A stretch of 64,000 nucleotides of DNA from positions 15,092 through 79,091 of the forward strand of contig JBGATK010000002.1 of assembly GCA_044229265.1 (NCBI GenBank), given 5' to 3'. Numbering within the stretch: the first letter of the stretch is position 1; every line of letters begins with the position of its first letter. Of this stretch, positions 6,694-60,000 are shown piece by piece. Both the position numbers and the translations under genes were made by a program. Below the pieces are notes generated by a model that was not told the DNA's origin, made no database searches, and was given only the letters and a program-made list of their open reading frames with translations. Source of the stretch: Minisyncoccia bacterium (GTDB lineage Bacteria; Patescibacteriota; Minisyncoccia; Phycocordibacterales; UBA9973).

Positions 6694-6942
6694 ACGAGGT
6701 ATTATTGCATAAAAGCTTTAAAAAGGCAAACAAATCCTAAATTATAGTTGAAATAGGGAAGAGTGCCCGGCTTTTTGCATAGCAAAAAGCCGGGCACGAT
6801 ACACACTTGACTTTTTGTCAAATAGATGCTAGTGTGAGCCCGTAAGTTGGTCCTTGAAAAACAAGTTAAAAGTATTGTTATTTTTGCCCGGAGGCTATCT
6901 TGGCAGAAATAACAATATTCTTTAACTTAAAAACAAAAAATT

Positions 6943-9745: not shown

Positions 9746-9805
9746 AAATTTGTGCGAGGTCTTGCCTCGCACAAATTGTTTGAGTAAGATCTTGCCTTAC
9801 TCAAA
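9746..9805. terminator. two tandem hairpins between convergent genes (bidirectional terminator); first hairpin is a repeated element
   Basis: aaatttgtgcgagg-tcttg-cctcgcacaaatt then ttgagtaag-atcttgc-cttactcaa; core 25 nt identical to hairpin at 31856-31892. Confidence 0.7.
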
Positions 9806-15581: not shown

Positions 15582-15841
15582 TGAAAACATTTACTGAAAA
15601 AGTTTTATATGTAGTTCGTAAAATTCCAAAAGGTAAGGTGATGACTTATGGAGAGGTGGCAAAAAGCGCGGGAAGCCCGAGGGCTTCCCGCGCTGTGGGC
15701 TCCATTATGAAAGCCAACTTCGACAAAAATGTGCCTTGCCACCGCGTTATTAAAGCCGACGGCTCAGTCGGCGCCTACAACCGCGGCGGCCCGAATGCCA
15801 AACTCGCATTACTTAAAAAAGAAGGAGCAATAAAAAAGTGA
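15581..15841 (+). CDS. Methylated-DNA-protein-cysteine methyltransferase DNA-binding domain protein (Ogt/MGMT C-terminal domain only)
   Basis: VPCHRVI active-site motif (PCHR) in 86-aa protein; start overlaps upstream stop (taATGa). Confidence 0.75.
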   Translation: MKTFTEKVLYVVRKIPKGKVMTYGEVAKSAGSPRASRAVGSIMKANFDKNVPCHRVIKADGSVGAYNRGGPNAKLALLKKEGAIKK

Positions 15842-25792: not shown

Positions 25793-26128
25793 ATGAAAAA
25801 AGTAAATAAGAAAAAAGTTTTTAAATTTAAAAGCAAGGTTGTCGTGTGGGCAGGGGGTAATTACAATGAGGCAAAAAAGGCAGGCGCTTGGCGTATGGCT
25901 TTTTTGCCGAAAGATATTGGCGCAAAAATTTCTGAAATACAAAAAGGTAAAAAGCGTAGAGGCTGGGGCGCTGTGTATGTAAATGCCCGTGTAGGAAAAA
26001 GTATTTGGAAAACTTCTATTTTCCCAGACAAGCGTTCAAGCACATATATATTGCCACTTAAAAAAGAAATCCGTTATGAGGAAAATTTATACGACGACGC
26101 TACTTTTGATTTCATTATTGAAATATAA
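25793..26128 (+). CDS. DUF1905-domain protein
   Basis: VVVWAGGNYNEAKKAGAWRMAFLP...GWGAVYVNARVGKSIWKTSIFPDKRSSTYILPLKKEIR pattern. Confidence 0.5.
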   Translation: MKKVNKKKVFKFKSKVVVWAGGNYNEAKKAGAWRMAFLPKDIGAKISEIQKGKKRRGWGAVYVNARVGKSIWKTSIFPDKRSSTYILPLKKEIRYEENLYDDATFDFIIEI

Positions 26129-31836: not shown

Positions 31837-31855
31837 TCTAATTAAATAAGAGAAT

Positions 31856-31892
31856 ACAAAATTGTGCGAGGTCTTGCCTCGCACAATTTTGT
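31856..31892 (+). terminator. perfect 16-bp-stem hairpin terminator; same core as 9746-9777
   Basis: acaaaattgtgcgagg-tcttg-cctcgcacaattttgt; 25-nt core identical at both loci. Confidence 0.7.
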
Positions 31893-31956
31893 ATTTTAGA
31901 GAAAGTATTGTAATATAAAAACGATAAAAAAAATCGTTCATTTGTAAAATATAAAT

Positions 31957-46653: not shown

Positions 46654-46687
46654 TATTTTTTATTGTTTGTTTTTTCTAATTAAAGGT

Positions 46688-46693
46688 TATAAT
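46688..46693 (+). promoter_or_regulatory. -10 TATAAT 6 nt upstream of ATG 46700 (leaderless murE)
   Basis: TATAAT-actaat-ATG. Confidence 0.45.
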
Positions 46694-46699
46694 ACTAAT

Positions 46700-47941
46700 A
46701 TGCAGAATTTGATAAAAAGCATTGATCAAAAACTCAAACTAAAAAGGCGAATAATTGCTAAATTAGCAGCACTTCATTTTTATGGTAATCCATCGAAAGA
46801 TTTAAAAATAGTGGGCGTGACAGGCACAAATGGTAAGACCACTACGGCTACTTTGCTTTACAAAATATCTACAGCACTAGGATACAAGTCCGGCCTTATA
46901 GGCACAGTAGAGAATATTATCATAAATGAAAGGCGAGAAGCATTGCGCACTACTCCAAGCCCTATACCACTTAATAGTTTATTAAAAGAAATGTTAAGTA
47001 AAGGAGTAGAATATGTTTTTATTGAAGTCTCAAGTCATGCCTTAGATCAAGACAGAGTAGCTGGTATAAATTTTACTGGAGGCATTTTTACGAACCTCAC
47101 CCACGACCATCTCGATTATCATAAAAGCATAGAGAATTATTTTGGAGCTAAAAAGAAATTTTTCAAAATGCTTCCTGAAAATGCTTTTGCCTTATCAAAT
47201 GGCGACGATGAGCACGGAGCAATGATGCTTGAGGATATAAAAGCTAAAAAAAATATTTATGGTTTTGAGGGAGGCGAAAATTTTCACGGGGAAATTTTAA
47301 AATCAGATTTTGGTGGTTTAGAACTTAAATTCAACCGGACCAATATTCATTCCAAATTAATAGGCAGATTCAATGCCTACAATTTACTTTCCGTTTGGAG
47401 TGCATGCAAACTCCTTAATTTTAATATGCCTAAAGTAAAAAATATTTTAGAAGACATTACTCCACCAGCTGGGCGTTTTGAATATTTTATTTCTAACAAT
47501 GGTATTGTGGGAATAGTGGATTATGCTCATACACCGGACGCTCTCGAGAAAGTATTGCTCACTATTAAAGACATAAAAAGTGAAGGATCTAGAATTATTT
47601 CTGTATTTGGTTGTGGAGGGGACAGGGATCCTATGAAGCGTAGAGTTATGGGAAAAGTAGGAGCTACATTTTCTGATATTTCTATTTTTACTACAGATAA
47701 TCCTCGTAGCGAAGATCCAGAAAAAATTATCTCGGAAATGAAAACCGATGTATCGATGGAAGAATTAAAAAGAGTTCAAGTTTACACAGACCGCAGAATA
47801 GCAATTGAAAAAGCTATAGCTCAGGCTAAAGCCGGCGACATAGTCCTCGTAGCTGGTAAAGGCCACGAAACTTATCAAGAAATCTCTGGCACAAAATATC
47901 ACTTCAACGACATGGAAGAGTTAAAAAAATTTCTTAAATAA
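46700..47941 (+). CDS. murE: UDP-N-acetylmuramoyl-L-alanyl-D-glutamate--2,6-diaminopimelate ligase MurE
   Basis: VTGTNGKTTTA P-loop, DYAHTPDALEK, GGDRD and DNPR (meso-DAP-recognition) motifs; ORF-track start 46667 lies upstream of the -10 box. Confidence 0.85.
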   Translation: MQNLIKSIDQKLKLKRRIIAKLAALHFYGNPSKDLKIVGVTGTNGKTTTATLLYKISTALGYKSGLIGTVENIIINERREALRTTPSPIPLNSLLKEMLSKGVEYVFIEVSSHALDQDRVAGINFTGGIFTNLTHDHLDYHKSIENYFGAKKKFFKMLPENAFALSNGDDEHGAMMLEDIKAKKNIYGFEGGENFHGEILKSDFGGLELKFNRTNIHSKLIGRFNAYNLLSVWSACKLLNFNMPKVKNILEDITPPAGRFEYFISNNGIVGIVDYAHTPDALEKVLLTIKDIKSEGSRIISVFGCGGDRDPMKRRVMGKVGATFSDISIFTTDNPRSEDPEKIISEMKTDVSMEELKRVQVYTDRRIAIEKAIAQAKAGDIVLVAGKGHETYQEISGTKYHFNDMEELKKFLK

Positions 47942-48246: not shown

Positions 48247-50928
48247 TTATTTAGGAAAATACTTAGATACTAAGTTTGGGATAGATTCAGTCAGTCCAAA
48301 GAGAGAGCCGGAGGTGACTAGGGCTATTAGGTCTCCAAGCTTTAGAGTGTTTTTTAAAATTTCTAAGGCTTCGCCTTCATCTTTCGGCGCATATACATTT
48401 TCACCTTTATGCTCTTTTACTATTTTTACTATGTCTTCTTGACTCATTTGATTGTGAGTATTTGCTCCATGCCCTGGTGGGGGAAGTATGAGGACTATAT
48501 TTGATGAATCGAAAACGTCATTGTACCAAGCTTTTGCTTGTTCATTGCGCCAAGAAAATGTGTGCGGTTCGAATACTGTGATAAGTCTTTTATTTGGGTA
48601 GTGGAGCGAAAGTGCCTCGAAGACGGATTTAGCTTTTGCATATGAAGAGCCAAAGCCCTCGTACACGAGGACGCTAGACTTTGCAGGTTTTAGGTCGAGT
48701 CTGCCAGATAGGCCTTTAAAGTTCTTAATAGCTTTTTGGAGTTCTGCTACACTTACTAATTTTTTTTCAAGTACAAAAGCAGAGGCGCCGATAATGTTTT
48801 CGATATTATGCCGGCCAAGCATTGAAGTTTGAAGTGAAATTATTTTTTTATTTTTATTATACAAATCAAAAGTAGTATTCATGCTGTAAACAATATTTTT
48901 AACATGATAAGAATTTACTTCATGCATACCGTAATATACAACTTTACTCTTAGACTTTTTGGCAATACTCATTACATTTTTGCCATCTTTGCATGCTACA
49001 AGCAAACCGTCCTTTGGAAGTAATTTAACAAATTTTTCAAATGGTGCTATGTAGTTTTCCTCAGTAGGGAAGACATTTATGTGGTCATGCTCGCCAGAAG
49101 TTAATACTGCATTTGTCGGATTCATATATTGCATTTTAGAAGTACTATCCCAATTTGCTGATGGATATTCATCGCCTTCAAGGATAAAATTTTTACCTTT
49201 GCCTAGGAATGCATTTTGTTTGAAACCTAGAGGTACTGCTCCTATAAAATACGAAGGGTCCTTTTTAGCTTCTTTTAAAATGTGAGCGATAAGGGAAGTC
49301 ATTGTGCTTTTACCAAAGCTACCGACTACAACAGTATTTTCTTTGCCACCGAGTAAGTCCCCAATAGCTTCTGGGAGGGATTTGATAGGTATGCCTGAGG
49401 CGAAGGCTTGCTTTACTTCAGGATTTGTTTCTGGTACGAGTTTAGCGTGTTTACCGATGATTATAAAGTCTGCATCAGCGGGAATATTCTCCGTTTTGTG
49501 TGGAGTAGTGATTTTGATTTTATTTTTCTTGAGGAGTCCCGCCACTGGTTCATAAAATCCTTCGTCTGATCCAGACACAATGTAGCCTTTTTGCTTTAGC
49601 ATAATAGCCAAACCTGACATACCTTTGCCACAGATGCCTATAAGGTGAACTTTTCTACAGGTGTTGGACACCTGACCCAGGTGTCCAACACCTGTAGTCT
49701 TTCTTTCTTCGTATTTAGTTGCATAGTTTTGATAAAGTAAAACATCTTTGATGGCTAGCAAGGCTTCGCCAAACAATGTTTTTTCATATTTCTTTAAATC
49801 AACTTTCTCACCAAGTATCATATCTAGTGCGTGTAGTCCTAGGTGGCTGGAAAATCCACCTGTAGTCAGGGCACCAACTGGAGAATTCTTGATTATATTT
49901 TTAAAAACAGGGATTTTTGAAAATTTTTCTTTGTACTGTGGCAAGTATTCTACTTGAGCAAAACTTCCACAGCAGAGAAACTCATTCATAAATGCAAATA
50001 TTAAAAAACCTAGTGGTAAACCTATGCAAAGGGAATTCTTTTCAAGTTCATGAATTAAATTTTCTTTACTTAAGACTATTTTATTTTTATTGCTTTGTAG
50101 TGCGCCCATTTTCAAGTAGTAGTTTTCTATGCTAGGGTATTTCCCTTTACTTCGGCCGTAAAAAAATACTTCACCCTTGAATAAATCTTCGATTAAGGTA
50201 AGGTTTTGTTTTTCAAACAGTAGCTTTGTAATTGGATGTGAGATGTCTTTAAGGGCGAGTAGTAAATAATTCTTGGCTACTTCATTGAAGTCAAAGAATA
50301 CAGGGGAGCCGTGCAAAAAATTGCCTTCAATTTTTTGCACGGCTTTTATTGCCCACATAGTATAACTCTCTCCCGCGGTAGCTTTGGGTAAAAGCTTTTT
50401 AATTTTTGGGTCGAGATTCTCAATATTTTTGACCATGGCGGTGGGTATGGTGCTTTGATATACGAGGTCGTCTTGCAAGGCAGAAGGCACGAGGTTGATA
50501 TTGCCACTTTTCAGTAATAGGCGCCCTGGTCTAGTCTTATTTGAAAAAGGTAATCCAGAAAACATAGCGAGTAGATAAGGCTCATCTTTTTTTAGAGACA
50601 GGGAATGTAGATAGCTTATAAAAAAGAATCTAGGAGTTTGGGTTATTGCAGTGTGCCCAACACTCTGCAAGTTGCGATGAGTTTCAAGATACTTAAATAT
50701 TTTACTTTGCTTTGGTTTAGGGAGCCCAAGCCGAGAGAATTCTGTAGCAAGTGCTTTTATAAATATAGACTCAAGTGGCTTTGTTGGTTTAAAAGAATGA
50801 AGTTTCGCTGAGTATTCGAGCAGGGAAAGATCCCAATTTGCCTCAATGTGATTTGCCAAAAGTGTTTTACCAGAGTTTTTAAGCTCTAAAATCAGCGTCG
50901 CAAGCTCATTTTTAAGGATATTTTGCAT
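48247..50928 (-). CDS. murC: 893-aa ORF: unknown ~430-aa N-terminal domain fused (or read through) to a complete UDP-N-acetylmuramate--L-alanine ligase (MurC/Mpl-type Mur ligase)
   Basis: C-terminal half starts RKVHLIGICGKGMSGLAIML (MurC N-terminus) and carries Mur ligase central and C-terminal domains; junction encoded by a perfect palindrome 49655-49697. Confidence 0.7.
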   Translation of the reverse strand: MQNILKNELATLILELKNSGKTLLANHIEANWDLSLLEYSAKLHSFKPTKPLESIFIKALATEFSRLGLPKPKQSKIFKYLETHRNLQSVGHTAITQTPRFFFISYLHSLSLKKDEPYLLAMFSGLPFSNKTRPGRLLLKSGNINLVPSALQDDLVYQSTIPTAMVKNIENLDPKIKKLLPKATAGESYTMWAIKAVQKIEGNFLHGSPVFFDFNEVAKNYLLLALKDISHPITKLLFEKQNLTLIEDLFKGEVFFYGRSKGKYPSIENYYLKMGALQSNKNKIVLSKENLIHELEKNSLCIGLPLGFLIFAFMNEFLCCGSFAQVEYLPQYKEKFSKIPVFKNIIKNSPVGALTTGGFSSHLGLHALDMILGEKVDLKKYEKTLFGEALLAIKDVLLYQNYATKYEERKTTGVGHLGQVSNTCRKVHLIGICGKGMSGLAIMLKQKGYIVSGSDEGFYEPVAGLLKKNKIKITTPHKTENIPADADFIIIGKHAKLVPETNPEVKQAFASGIPIKSLPEAIGDLLGGKENTVVVGSFGKSTMTSLIAHILKEAKKDPSYFIGAVPLGFKQNAFLGKGKNFILEGDEYPSANWDSTSKMQYMNPTNAVLTSGEHDHINVFPTEENYIAPFEKFVKLLPKDGLLVACKDGKNVMSIAKKSKSKVVYYGMHEVNSYHVKNIVYSMNTTFDLYNKNKKIISLQTSMLGRHNIENIIGASAFVLEKKLVSVAELQKAIKNFKGLSGRLDLKPAKSSVLVYEGFGSSYAKAKSVFEALSLHYPNKRLITVFEPHTFSWRNEQAKAWYNDVFDSSNIVLILPPPGHGANTHNQMSQEDIVKIVKEHKGENVYAPKDEGEALEILKNTLKLGDLIALVTSGSLFGLTESIPNLVSKYFPK
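49655..49697. repeat. perfect inverted repeat (20-bp arms, 3-bp spacer) inside the ORF at the N-domain/MurC junction
   Basis: ctacaggtgttggacacctg-acc-caggtgtccaacacctgtag; GC-rich relative to genome. Confidence 0.9.
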
Positions 50929-56658: not shown

Positions 56659-57410
56659 ATGTCAAAGTGTCAAAGGGCATCTTTGACATTAAATAATAAA
56701 GTTTGTTTTATAAGATTTTCTTTGCCTTCGAATAATTCTATAAAGAATTTTTTTTCTAGGATTGGTAAATCCTCGTTTGTTTTATAAAAATTATAACTGC
56801 TCCATCTATAATTTTCAGGCTTTTTAATAAGGCCATCTTTTACTGCATTCATATGTATATAAGCACTGGTCCACATTATTTGTGAATTTGATTCCATGCA
56901 TACTGCTTTAAATTGATCTTGAAAAACATGGCCCACACGATTGTATTTTTTATTATAATATTTTGAATAACTGGTTATTATTTTATGAATAAACTTAGAA
57001 ATAGAATAATCACTATTTTGTTCTATTAATAAATGGAAATGATTTTGCATTAAAGTAAATGCATGTATTTTAATTTTATTTTTTTCTGAGCCAATAATCC
57101 TGATACGTGAATAGGGCATATTAAAAATCGAATGATTTAATTCTTTAATTTCAAAACCAAGAGCCAGTCCAAGACGAAATAAAAAAGCTCGATAGTCTTG
57201 ATCATCTAAATATATTTTTTCCTTATTATTGCCACGATTATAAATATGGTAAAAATTTCCTTTTTCAAATTTTTTATAATCTCTGTTGTTTGCCATATTA
57301 TTTATATTAATGTCAAAGATGCCCTTTGACATTAATATTTTATCAAATTCACAATAATAATCAGTATTTAAATGTGGAAAACTGTGTGTCAAAGATGCCC
57401 TTTGACATAT
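56659..57410 (-). mobile_element. IS200/IS605-family element (tnpA only) bounded by palindromic hairpins TGTCAAAGGGCATCTTTGACA (one at left, two inverted copies at right)
   Basis: hairpins at 56668-56688, 57311-57331, 57387-57407; left hairpin abuts gyrA stop codon. Confidence 0.8.
56670..57296 (-). CDS. tnpA: IS200-like / REP-associated tyrosine (Y1, HUH) transposase
   Basis: HuH motif NHFHLLIEQ and C-terminal YRWSSYNFY tyrosine motif; start set at Met just downstream of hairpin (ORF-track start 57392 reads through hairpin). Confidence 0.75.
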   Translation of the reverse strand: MANNRDYKKFEKGNFYHIYNRGNNKEKIYLDDQDYRAFLFRLGLALGFEIKELNHSIFNMPYSRIRIIGSEKNKIKIHAFTLMQNHFHLLIEQNSDYSISKFIHKIITSYSKYYNKKYNRVGHVFQDQFKAVCMESNSQIMWTSAYIHMNAVKDGLIKKPENYRWSSYNFYKTNEDLPILEKKFFIELFEGKENLIKQTLLFNVKDAL

Positions 57411-58707: not shown

Positions 58708-60000
58708 ATGAAAAATTTTCAAATTATTAGCTTGGTGGTTTTCGGATTATTTGCGGTCTTTGGACTTTTAGTTTTTTCTGGAACTATAGACATAGGCTCT
58801 AATAATCAAAATACTGCTAAGGGCACCGTGACGCTCTGGGGCACATATGATAAAAGTAATATAGAATCTCTGATAGATGATTTCAATGCTCGCAATCAGA
58901 CTTTTGAAGTAAAATATTCGAAAAAAGATGAAGCAACTTTTGCCGGAGATTTACTCGAAGCTATAGCTTCTGGCACTGGACCTGATATGTTTTTCTTGCC
59001 AGATGACCTAGCTTTGCAATATGCAAATAAGATTTATACTATTCCGTATGCTAGTTATCCTGTAGCTTCTTATAAAAATTCTTTTGCACAGGCTGGGGAA
59101 GTATTTTTAACTTCACGTGGGATACTAGCTTTTCCTATGGTTATTGATCCACTCGTTATGTATTACAATAGAAATATCTTGGATTCAAATAGTATTGCTT
59201 ACCCACCTAATAATTGGGAAGAATTTACAATTCAAGCTACAAAAATTACTAAAAAGGACGCTGATAAGCAGATACAAAAAAGTGCAGTAGGTTTCGGACA
59301 ATACTCAAATGTATCTGGAGCAAAAGACATACTTGCTATGCTTTTTATGCAAATAGGTAATGGTATTGTGAAAGAAAAAGGAAGTGATTTTGGATCAGTG
59401 CTTAATGAAAAGGTGGCAAATTTACCAGCTCCAGAGACCGTGATACCTTTTTATATTTCTTTTGCTGATCCGTCTAAGACTAATTATGTTTGGAATAAAT
59501 CTTTTCCAAATTCACGGGAATATTTCGTAGCAGATAATTCAGCATTTTATTTCGGTCATGCTAGTGAGTTTACTGCTCTCGTAAATAAAAATCCAAATCT
59601 TAATTTTGGTATGGCAGAAGTTCCTCAGATAAAAAATTCGAATCTGAAAATTACCGGAGCTCGTACTACTGGTATAGCTGTGACTTCATTTTCAAAGAAT
59701 TTGAATACTGCACTTACTGCAGCAGGACTCATGGCTACTACGGATTTTGCAGATAAATTTGCAAAAGCTGTGGGCGGTGCGCCAGCGCGGAGAGATCTCC
59801 TTGCTGGCGCACCTACAGGCGAAGTTTCGCCCGCAGTATATTCTTCTGCCTTATTCTCTCGTAGTTGGCTTGATCCTAATTCTGCTAGTACTGACAATAT
59901 TTTCCGTGCCATGATAGACGGAGCTTTTTCAAATAACCGCTCGGGTGCTGATGTAATAGAAGAAGCTTCCGGAAGGTTAGAATTATTACTTCGAAAATAA
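58708..60000 (+). CDS. extracellular solute-binding (SBP family 1, sugar-type) fold lipoprotein-like protein, no cognate permease/ATPase adjacent
   Basis: N-terminal TM/signal, 430 aa, SBP_bac_1-like composition; tightly packed with flanking genes. Confidence 0.55.
   Translation: MKNFQIISLVVFGLFAVFGLLVFSGTIDIGSNNQNTAKGTVTLWGTYDKSNIESLIDDFNARNQTFEVKYSKKDEATFAGDLLEAIASGTGPDMFFLPDDLALQYANKIYTIPYASYPVASYKNSFAQAGEVFLTSRGILAFPMVIDPLVMYYNRNILDSNSIAYPPNNWEEFTIQATKITKKDADKQIQKSAVGFGQYSNVSGAKDILAMLFMQIGNGIVKEKGSDFGSVLNEKVANLPAPETVIPFYISFADPSKTNYVWNKSFPNSREYFVADNSAFYFGHASEFTALVNKNPNLNFGMAEVPQIKNSNLKITGARTTGIAVTSFSKNLNTALTAAGLMATTDFADKFAKAVGGAPARRDLLAGAPTGEVSPAVYSSALFSRSWLDPNSASTDNIFRAMIDGAFSNNRSGADVIEEASGRLELLLRK

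Follow-up and report, generated by a model that had tools for sequence, protein, structure and literature searches.

In a 64,000-nucleotide stretch of DNA from a Minisyncoccia bacterium (contig JBGATK010000002.1, positions 15,092 to 79,091; below, the window), a perfect palindrome at 49655-49697 lies inside an open reading frame (ORF) of 893 codons, at the junction between a domain of 410 residues and the Mur ligase MurC. This palindrome is most probably a doublet resembling a REPIN, composed of two inverted repetitive extragenic palindromes (REPs). It appears to represent a dispersed Patescibacteria family that was spread by REP-associated tyrosine transposases (RAYTs), and that here has become the translated linker of a pre-existing fusion. 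On the sequence evidence, the 893-aa fusion protein is real and selected, and the palindrome is a later occupant of a linker prone to REPs. The features concerned are the following.

48247..50928, minus strand: fused ORF, 893 aa, BshC-like N-terminal domain plus REP-encoded linker plus MurC (also P0095, P0096).
49698..50928, minus strand: N-terminal part, aa 1-410, belonging to a family of stand-alone Patescibacteria proteins of about 408 aa, no Pfam match, predicted BshC-like fold.
48247..49653, minus strand: MurC part, aa 426-893 plus stop, matching TIGR01082 (below its cutoff) and Pfam Mur ligase domains.
49655..49697, unstranded: probable REPIN-like doublet, two inverted REP units, 3-nt spacer, 43-nt perfect palindrome.
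49658..49674, plus strand: REP unit A, CAGGTGT-TGG-ACACCTG, a 7-3-7 hairpin that flanks RAYT genes in the genome stretches L005 and L050.
49678..49694, plus strand: REP unit B, CAGGTGT-CCA-ACACCTG, which is unit A in reverse complement.

The initial annotation of this DNA had described a 43-nt palindrome with 20-nt arms lying in frame, and the sequence is as it was quoted, with arms (49655-49674 and 49678-49697, 20 nt each) that are 100% complementary across a 3-nt spacer. That annotation overlooked, however, that each arm is itself a 7-3-7 palindrome (CAGGTGT-TGG/CCA-ACACCTG). We term this unit type 1; as single-strand sequence it is CAGGTGTTGGACACCTG. Read on the minus strand, the palindrome is ACT ACA GGT GTT GGA CAC CTG GGT CAG GTG TCC AAC ACC TGT, which encodes TTGVGHLGQVSNTC and stands in the translation of the 893-codon ORF as (T)TGVGHLGQVSNTC(R). 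Its GC content is 56%, compared with 32-37% in the adjoining DNA, about 35% in the genome and 31-37% nearly throughout the window except for one 2-kb stretch at 42%, and its computed folding energy is -40.8 kcal/mol as RNA (z = -5.7) and -24.3 kcal/mol as DNA (z = -7.5). The 17-mer core, with up to 3 mismatches allowed, matches four times in the window, only at the palindrome, where 0.03 matches are expected. An identical palindrome accompanied by an identical protein is present in the independently assembled Logan contig L051.

A role as attenuator, also suggested initially, did not survive inspection of the flanks. After the stem, the sense (minus) strand continues with AAAAGTTCACC and has no U-tract, a T-rich tail being found on the antisense strand only, and the palindrome is therefore not an intrinsic terminator or attenuator for the gene; a sense-strand terminator was rejected on the same ground. 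Membership in an Rfam family was likewise set aside, as a scan of 49400-49950 at E values up to 10 returned only sub-threshold chance matches to miRNA and leader models.

The exact 20-mer arm has no match in GTDB contigs sampled at one genome per species or in viral contigs, and it matches one metagenome contig, L004, where a near-identical doublet lies in frame within a 248-aa ORF whose product we take, by eye only, to resemble DNA polymerase III delta'. We therefore searched with a gapped core pattern, GTGTTGGACAC-N(0-30)-GTGTCCAACAC, requiring exact cores. This pattern retrieved 46 genome stretches, almost all from metagenome-assembled genomes (MAGs) of Patescibacteria (Nomurabacteria, Paceibacterota and some labelled Saccharibacteria). 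Including L004 and the window, the total is 53 doublets, with several copies per genome and at least 6-7 exact-core doublets in each of LCGB01, MFTF01 and CAZXCD01. The palindrome thus belongs to a dispersed doublet family and is, as had been supposed, an inserted element rather than ordinary coding sequence. A doublet of the same 11-nt cores was also seen at 2712-2749 of L013, a MAG labelled Saprospiraceae (Bacteroidota), for which chance, mis-binning or transfer are possible explanations. In the literature we found no description of the motif, or of palindromic or REP elements in Patescibacteria or the Candidate Phyla Radiation, which is not proof of novelty.

Bases outside and inside the core vary among copies yet remain complementary (for example TTTCGG/CCGAAA, TGTCGG/CCGACA, CAG/CTG and TAG/CTA). 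When 51 copies are aligned in fixed register, pairing extends 5-6 bp past the core, and pair 9-40 is A-U in 24 copies and G-C in 23. None of 500 shuffles reaches the observed covariation score of the doublet, and the signal is lost when the partners are slid against each other. Single-unit hairpins are 91% paired in the same 51 copies, with the outer pairs within a unit less well kept. Because the doublet pairs covary while outer pairing within units is kept less, it is the doublet, and not the single unit, that is maintained. Units occur in doublets in 94 of 111 cases, a proportion biased by a search that was aimed at doublets. The ends are less uniform: the window copy has CTAC...GTAG, GTAG lies within the stem in L015, L048 and L050, many copies have (C)GTCGG...CCGAC(G) and others CAG/CTG, so that no single GTAG or CGTC tag is conserved.

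Of the 53 doublets, 25 (about half) are situated within ORFs of at least 200 aa, in frame. Ten hosts were confirmed with NCBIfam models (Tig, GltX, MnmA, GatB, RsmH, a TrxB-like protein, GatA, TopA, a NifS-type desulfurase and PurL); for most hosts, alignment to the model crosses the insert as a single stretch. The encoded peptides are mostly of the form xGVGH...(VSNT or CPTP), less often VLDT... or CWTP..., which shows that all three frames are used; the type-1 core, read from its sequence, is stop-free in six frames. Orthologous sites are occupied recurrently (GatB, MurE and MnmA three times each; TopA, RsmH, GatA and the TrxB-like protein twice each), and outer stems at such shared sites carry compensatory changes. 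For example, alignment of MurE proteins reveals a clean insert of 13-14 aa (SGVGHPEIQVSNTRQ) at one loop in L014, L038 and L046, a site that is empty in the window.

46667..47941, plus strand: MurE gene of the window, an empty site; in L014, L038 and L046 an in-frame type-1 doublet occupies this position of MurE.

The MurE gene of L003 (6645-7931, minus strand) has, after YGFKPVD and at the same loop site, a variant doublet, AGACGTTGGACGTCT...AGACGTCCAACGTCT, built of GACGT/ACGTC units. Compared with type 1 it keeps the same loops and has compensatory stem-pair changes in all four half-stems, and it resembles the REP that flanks the RAYT-like gene of L019. The other 28 doublets are intergenic, 18 of them between same-strand genes, and often begin 7-20 nt past the upstream stop and end 16-22 nt ahead of the next start. 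Conserved intergenic type-1 doublets were observed in five genomes (L008:7221, L016:6209, L018:2819, L019:3151 and L009:5518), in each case separated by 7-20 nt from the preceding gene and by about 10-20 nt from a following gene whose product starts MQKK, MQSE or MQNK.

We regard the palindrome as a REPIN-like doublet of REPs because the same unit flanks Y1 transposase genes on both sides. In L005, a 217-aa gene (213-863) is bracketed by type-1 units, single and double, with two upstream and five downstream, and a gene of L050 (1215-1835) whose product is 67% identical to the L005 protein likewise has type-1 units on both sides. The L005, L050, L019 and L007 proteins and one protein of the window exceed the cutoff of PF01797 (Y1_Tnp), and the HUH (HFH) and Tyr-containing motifs are conserved in the alignment of RAYT-like proteins. 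A phmmer search of the PDB with the L005 protein alone gave no match; a profile of seven RAYT-like proteins matched ISDra2 TnpA (2xm3) with E = 7e-4 and E. coli TnpA-REP (4er8) with E = 0.15. Other RAYT-like genes have repeats of their own.

L019: RAYT-like gene with its own flanking repeat, TGTAGACGT-TTA-ACGTCTACA.
L007: RAYT-like gene with its own flanking repeat, TGCTAGG-CAAGA-CCTAGCA.
L046: RAYT-like gene with its own flanking repeat, ACGGAAGC-NNN-GCTTCCGT.
L024: RAYT-like gene with long inverted terminal repeats, not a short hairpin.

A RAYT gene flanked by its own REPs is the arrangement described as REP-RAYT or 'REPtron' (PMC3116915, PMC5581495, PMC3733652).

The MurC part of the fused ORF was correctly recognised at the outset. 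The TIGR01082 model aligns from its position 1 at residue 426 (KVHLIGICG..., KVHLIGICGKGMSGLA), covers model positions 1-446 with E = 6e-80 and a score of 269 bits against a 335-bit cutoff, and is the best among all Mur ligase models. Pfam Mur_ligase and Mur_ligase_M are above their cutoffs in this part, and Mur_ligase_C is weak (18.2 bits versus 28.4). The predicted junction peptide of the fusion reads ...KYEERKTTGVGHLGQVSNTCRKVHLIG..., also given as TTGVGHLGQVSNTCR. A second perfect palindrome inside the fused ORF, at 50307-50344, has 17-nt arms and a 4-nt loop (AGCCGTGCAAAAAATTG/CAATTTTTTGCACGGCT) and encodes AVQKIEGNFLHG; no obvious length difference relative to homologues accompanies it.

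It had also been proposed that the two halves would be separate genes in relatives, and in distant relatives (up to 56% identity) they are. The upstream gene of L003 ends ...NLVRK-TAA, followed by 18 nt and then by the ATG of murC (MKKVHLIGICG), and L001 has an additional small gene between the upstream gene and murC. The order S1 protein, gene of about 210 aa, N-domain gene, murC, murE is conserved, and the palindrome of the window occupies exactly the position of the stop, spacer and start of the separate genes. Closer to the window, clustering at 90% identity groups the 893-aa protein with two further members, of 890 and 896 aa, whose DNA was retrieved. The sister genomes L052 and L053 (93% and 96% amino acid identity) have the same fused ORF with different linkers.

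Window linker: peptide TTGVGHLGQVSNTCRK; type-1 doublet, 43-nt perfect palindrome.
L052 linker: peptide STTEARPQGLKK; ccaCTGAGG-CAAGA-CCTCAGggg, a single hairpin, -8.7 kcal/mol, z = -4.
L053 linker: peptide SATETRPEGQKPSKKK; decayed hairpin of the L052 type plus 12 nt.

Measured between KYEERK and VH, the three linkers have lengths of 36, 48 and 48 nt, all in frame and stop-free, and beyond their A-rich edges they have no common sequence. In L053 there is no ATG, GTG or TTG in the linker or near the MurC N-terminus. Because L052 and L053 are fused through other linkers, the fusion is older than the palindrome of the window. The initial annotation had offered the palindrome as the insertion that fused two genes by read-through; this is contradicted by the sister genomes, which are fused with an intact or decayed REP of another family. 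At the orthologous loci, the fusion is present and this palindrome absent in L052 and L053, and the genes are separate in L001 and L003. That the frame has been kept through complete replacement of the linker is strong evidence that the fused polypeptide is made. Moreover, the MurC part differs from that of L052, in the fused state, by 134 synonymous and 42 non-synonymous codon changes, which indicates purifying selection.

Divergence from the sister genomes is uneven along the gene. Nucleotide identity to L052 (48247-50928 against L052 3001-5673) is 98.1% in the N-domain and 84.9% in the MurC part, and identity to L053 (1057-3747) is 98.6% and 92.8%, respectively. This jump in identity across the linker points to a recombination breakpoint at or beside the REP linker. 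As an alternative to transposition in place, the type-1 doublet may have arrived within a recombined murC allele.

The upstream domain had been called unknown, which stands for its residues 1-410 in that no Pfam or NCBIfam model matches them, and had been given a size of 430 aa, which should be about 405-410. We detected 93 homologues of this 410-residue domain, nearly all of them stand-alone Patescibacteria proteins of about 408 aa without a Pfam domain. None of the 93 is fused to MurC. About 13 carry a MurI-like racemase domain (PF01177), and in the one such fusion that was checked the racemase domain is N-terminal to the domain of this family. An AlphaFold model built from a 73-sequence alignment has a predicted local distance difference test (pLDDT) score of 93.7 and a predicted template modelling (TM) score of 0.93. 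Its last six residues (405-410) have pLDDT below 50, which would fit a natural end of the chain with a linker behind it. The single significant PDB match of the model in Foldseek is BshC (4wbd; E = 2.5e-4, TM 0.48, 9% identity), after which weak matches to class-I aminoacyl-tRNA synthetases are ranked. BshC is the putative cysteine-adding enzyme of bacillithiol synthesis. The modelled domain resembles BshC in fold, a resemblance that does not amount to family membership. Together with the conserved murC/murE neighbourhood and the MurI-like fusions, the predicted fold suggests an uncharacterised nucleotide-dependent ligase-type enzyme tied to the synthesis of peptidoglycan precursors, which is a lead and not a result. 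The fusions and synteny suggest that peptidoglycan-precursor synthesis in Patescibacteria has a step that is missing or has gone unrecognised.

Several observations weigh against the view that the palindrome is a RAYT-spread doublet. The 64 kb of the window contain one type-1 doublet only, and the sole RAYT-like gene of the window is flanked by another REP and is not cognate to type 1; no cognate enzyme was seen in the window, which represents part of the genome. The sole NCBIfam match of the L005 protein is REP_Tyr_transpos (NF047646), at 27 bits against a cutoff of 80; as this is the best match and yet below the cutoff, we assign these proteins to a distant RAYT-like clade. The constancy of the core is partly an effect of ascertainment, since the search used exact cores. 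Mobilisation by REP-RAYT systems is indirect even in model systems, and no transposition was observed here. Furthermore, outer-stem bases differ among copies, which could also fit local inverted duplication instead of movement of a fixed unit.

The last of these points leads to an alternative in which no mobile doublet arrived, but a single REP and its neighbouring bases were duplicated in inverted orientation on the spot, through hairpin priming or template switching. Outer stems that vary among copies and are perfectly complementary within each copy agree with such an origin, as does the better preservation of pairing between units than in the outer stems within units, and the left edge of the window palindrome, CTAC, is shared with the L052 linker (tCTACc), the right edge GTAG being new. 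However, the shared edge is 4 nt only and L053 has CTGC, the rest of the window linker is unlike the sister linkers, so a type-1 unit would have had to arrive first in any case, and identical outer stems such as TTTCGG/CCGAAA and TGTCGG/CCGACA recur at different loci. We consider local formation unlikely. Still less weight attaches to the possibility that the repeats are selected by the host, as uptake-type sequences, protein-binding sites or hairpins for RNA stability or termination, with the Y1 genes nearby by coincidence. Copies do stand at orthologous positions across species, including upstream of one MQKK... gene in five genomes, their number is low, and many intergenic ones lie 7-20 nt past a stop in the manner of terminators. 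Yet the type-1 unit brackets the Y1 genes of L005 and L050, and RAYT-like genes with their own flanking repeats are the defining REP-RAYT arrangement. Uptake sequences normally number hundreds per genome and are mostly single, and half of the copies are inside ORFs, where terminators would be harmful. A host signal is thus improbable, and a DNA uptake sequence in particular was rejected for its too few copies, mostly paired units and RAYT association.

A different objection concerns the protein rather than the repeat. The initial annotation had considered that MurC might start internally, which would make the long ORF an artefact, and a separate MurC could indeed begin at the in-frame GTG of the second arm (MSNTCRKVHLIG...), perhaps on a near-leaderless message left after the mRNA hairpin is cut, for example by RNase III, for which a 20-bp perfect RNA duplex is a plausible substrate. 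This GTG lies 7 residues ahead of VHLIG, as in the MurC of L001. The genes of the window mostly lack a Shine-Dalgarno sequence (a similar motif precedes 2 of the 35 long genes), and a TATAAT box immediately precedes the ATG in many of them, suggesting initiation of a leaderless type. Against this, the GTG, the only candidate start in the window, is buried in the -40.8 kcal/mol stem, Shine-Dalgarno sites are hardly used in this genome, there is no convincing promoter just upstream, and ribosomes from upstream necessarily enter MurC in the absence of a stop codon. The linker of L053, free of ATG, GTG and TTG, is nevertheless in frame, and all three linkers are stop-free multiples of three. An internal start as the source of MurC is, in our judgment, highly doubtful. 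There is practically no chance that the palindrome is a product of assembly or library preparation (a palindromic linker, an inverted chimera or an adaptor), or that a coding sequence happens to be palindromic by accident. Palindromic library linkers of about 44 nt exist, such as the 454 paired-end linker, and the arms contain MmeI-type TCCAAC sites. This explanation is refuted by flanks that are perfectly syntenic with relatives, by the same sequence in a second assembly, and by the presence of the core, at orthologous positions, in dozens of MAGs that come from separate studies and were built with different assemblers, with a chance expectation of about zero; a library linker or MmeI adaptor was discarded because of the syntenic flanks and the many independent assemblies with the family.

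Other candidates were rejected on specific grounds. The arms contain the GTTRRRY and RYYYAAC motifs of an integron attC site, but in reversed order and in the wrong context. Programmed -1 frameshifting would stop at the TAG that ends the palindrome, but no X XXY YYZ slippery site lies upstream and the stem begins 1 nt past the last candidate codon. Excision of the RNA, for example through a bulge-helix-bulge, is not indicated, given that the stem has no imperfection and that every in-gene copy preserves the frame, which translation predicts.

We therefore return to a doublet spread by transposition and then retained as a linker, for which the following course of events can be proposed. The family, whose REP hairpin measures 17-20 nt, would most likely be spread by a RAYT-type Y1 (HUH) transposase that recognises a folded single-stranded hairpin, as we infer from the association of gene and REP and from the known behaviour of E. 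coli TnpA-REP and the IS200/IS605 enzymes. With a core that is stop-free in six frames, copies landing in frame in tolerant loops or linkers would survive. At this locus, an original REP insertion into the short spacer probably caused the fusion, which would already have been present in the common ancestor of the window and the two sister genomes, whose linkers carry a REP of the second family, intact in L052 and decayed in L053. The type-1 doublet would then have taken the place of the earlier linker, whether through turnover of REPs in situ or through allelic recombination that broke at the linker. It now fills a linker of about 14 codons, presumably translated as TGVGHLGQVSNTC and acting as a flexible linker within one 893-aa polypeptide. 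Any additional function of the hairpin, for example in pausing ribosomes or in the stability of the mRNA, is a matter of speculation.

Two more REP types occur in the window, one of them in association with the only RAYT-like gene there.

56670..57296, minus strand: RAYT-like Y1 transposase gene, PF01797 at 45 bits (cutoff 23), sharing 29% identity with the RAYT of L005.
56668..56688, 57311-57331 and 57387-57407, unstranded: third REP type, TGTCAAAG-GGCAT-CTTTGACA, 3 exact copies, 0 expected.
31853..31895, unstranded: second REP type, core AGG-CAAGA-CCT, between two same-strand genes.
9747..9777, unstranded: further copy of the second REP type, between convergent genes.

The third type flanks the RAYT-like gene and has no copies elsewhere in the window. 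Copies of the second type in the window read TTGTGCG-AGG-CAAGA-CCT-CGCACAA, and this family, which also forms the L052 linker, has 12 copies in the DNA examined, including those on both flanks of the L007 RAYT gene and the two intergenic ones of the window. One copy, in L045 (at about 6002), lies within the PurL ORF. The window also contains an imperfect palindrome of 71% GC at 59776-59813 (GGTGCGCCAGCGCGGAGA/TCTCCTTGCTGGCGCACC), in frame in a 430-aa ORF (58708-60000, plus strand) and encoding GGAPARRDLLAGAP; this ORF has an N-terminal hydrophobic segment, and the palindrome may be another gene insert of the hairpin type. GC-rich palindromes (54-77% GC) at 15665-15694, 6763-6797 and 25870-25908 lie outside long ORFs and could be REPs or terminators. 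Many of the 35 ORFs have a TATAAT-like box (tgttataat, ctataat) 5-12 nt ahead of the ATG, which suggests leaderless mRNAs or mRNAs with very short leaders.

It is conceivable, and we put this forward tentatively, that REP hairpins of Patescibacteria are a regular and long-lived source of in-frame inserts and linkers in essential enzymes, the occupant of a site being replaceable from one REP type to another. Such a swap is seen at the MurE site, where three genomes have GGTGT/ACACC units but L003 has GACGT/ACGTC units, and at the BshC-like/MurC linker, with type 1 in the window and type 2 in L052. If this is true, REP-RAYT systems would shape protein architecture in the most streamlined bacterial genomes, and such REP sites would mark recombination breakpoints and could promote gene fusion. 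REP-RAYT systems, and in-frame insertion in the manner of Rickettsia palindromic elements (RPEs), would extend to ultra-small, gene-dense genomes in which insertions are nearly always in or beside genes. The presence of two REP families in one linker of sister genomes, together with the jump in divergence, offers a natural system for studying REP turnover and recombination. For annotation, a simple rule follows: GC-rich hairpins inside ORFs with GGTGT-TGG/CCA-ACACC or AGG-CAAGA-CCT cores are to be read as REP inserts and not as errors. The moderate interest of the case rests on the host phylum, the high share of copies in genes, the swapping of REPs at fixed sites and the REP-built BshC-like/MurC linker.

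The closest comparison is with the REPIN/RAYT systems of Pseudomonas and E. coli (Bertels & Rainey 2011, PMC3116915; Bertels et al. 2017, PMC5581495). Common to both are a short palindromic unit, two inverted units with a short spacer that form a long hairpin, and dispersal in multiple copies, as well as a unit that flanks a Y1/IS200-like gene, a REP type that differs by RAYT lineage and vertical persistence at orthologous sites. The family described here differs in its Patescibacteria hosts, in its low copy number (at least 3-7 exact-core doublets per genome), in having about half of its doublets in ORFs rather than in extragenic DNA, and in lacking a conserved GTAG head, and its proteins score weakly against the curated RAYT model. 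The transposases are related to IS200/IS605 TnpA (ISDra2, 2xm3; ISHp608) and to TnpA-REP (4er8) through PF01797 and the profile matches, with hairpin single-stranded DNA as a probable substrate by analogy. Their similarity to ISDra2 TnpA and TnpA-REP is remote (E = 7e-4 and 0.15).

In-frame palindromes in working genes also have precedents. Ogata et al. in 2000 reportedly described such elements in Rickettsia (RPE-1, -4 and -6). Intragenic REPs are documented in other phyla (Di Nocera et al. 2013, PMC3733652). The present inserts resemble both in that dimers add about 13-30 aa and in that the hosts are repair, replication and tRNA-related genes, with UvrB and aminoacyl-tRNA synthetases found here too. 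They differ from RPEs in sequence family and phylum, in that the doublet links formerly separate genes, and in the occurrence of two REP families in one linker of sister genomes. The fused protein itself recalls MurC-Ddl (NCBIfam NF011171), in which MurC is joined in one polypeptide to another enzyme of the same pathway; here, by contrast, the partner is an uncharacterised protein of predicted BshC-like fold, N-terminal to MurC, and the linker is of mobile-element DNA. Since REPs and RPEs that lie in frame within genes have been described before from other phyla, the kind of element is not new, but the family, the host phylum and the role as a linker appear to be.

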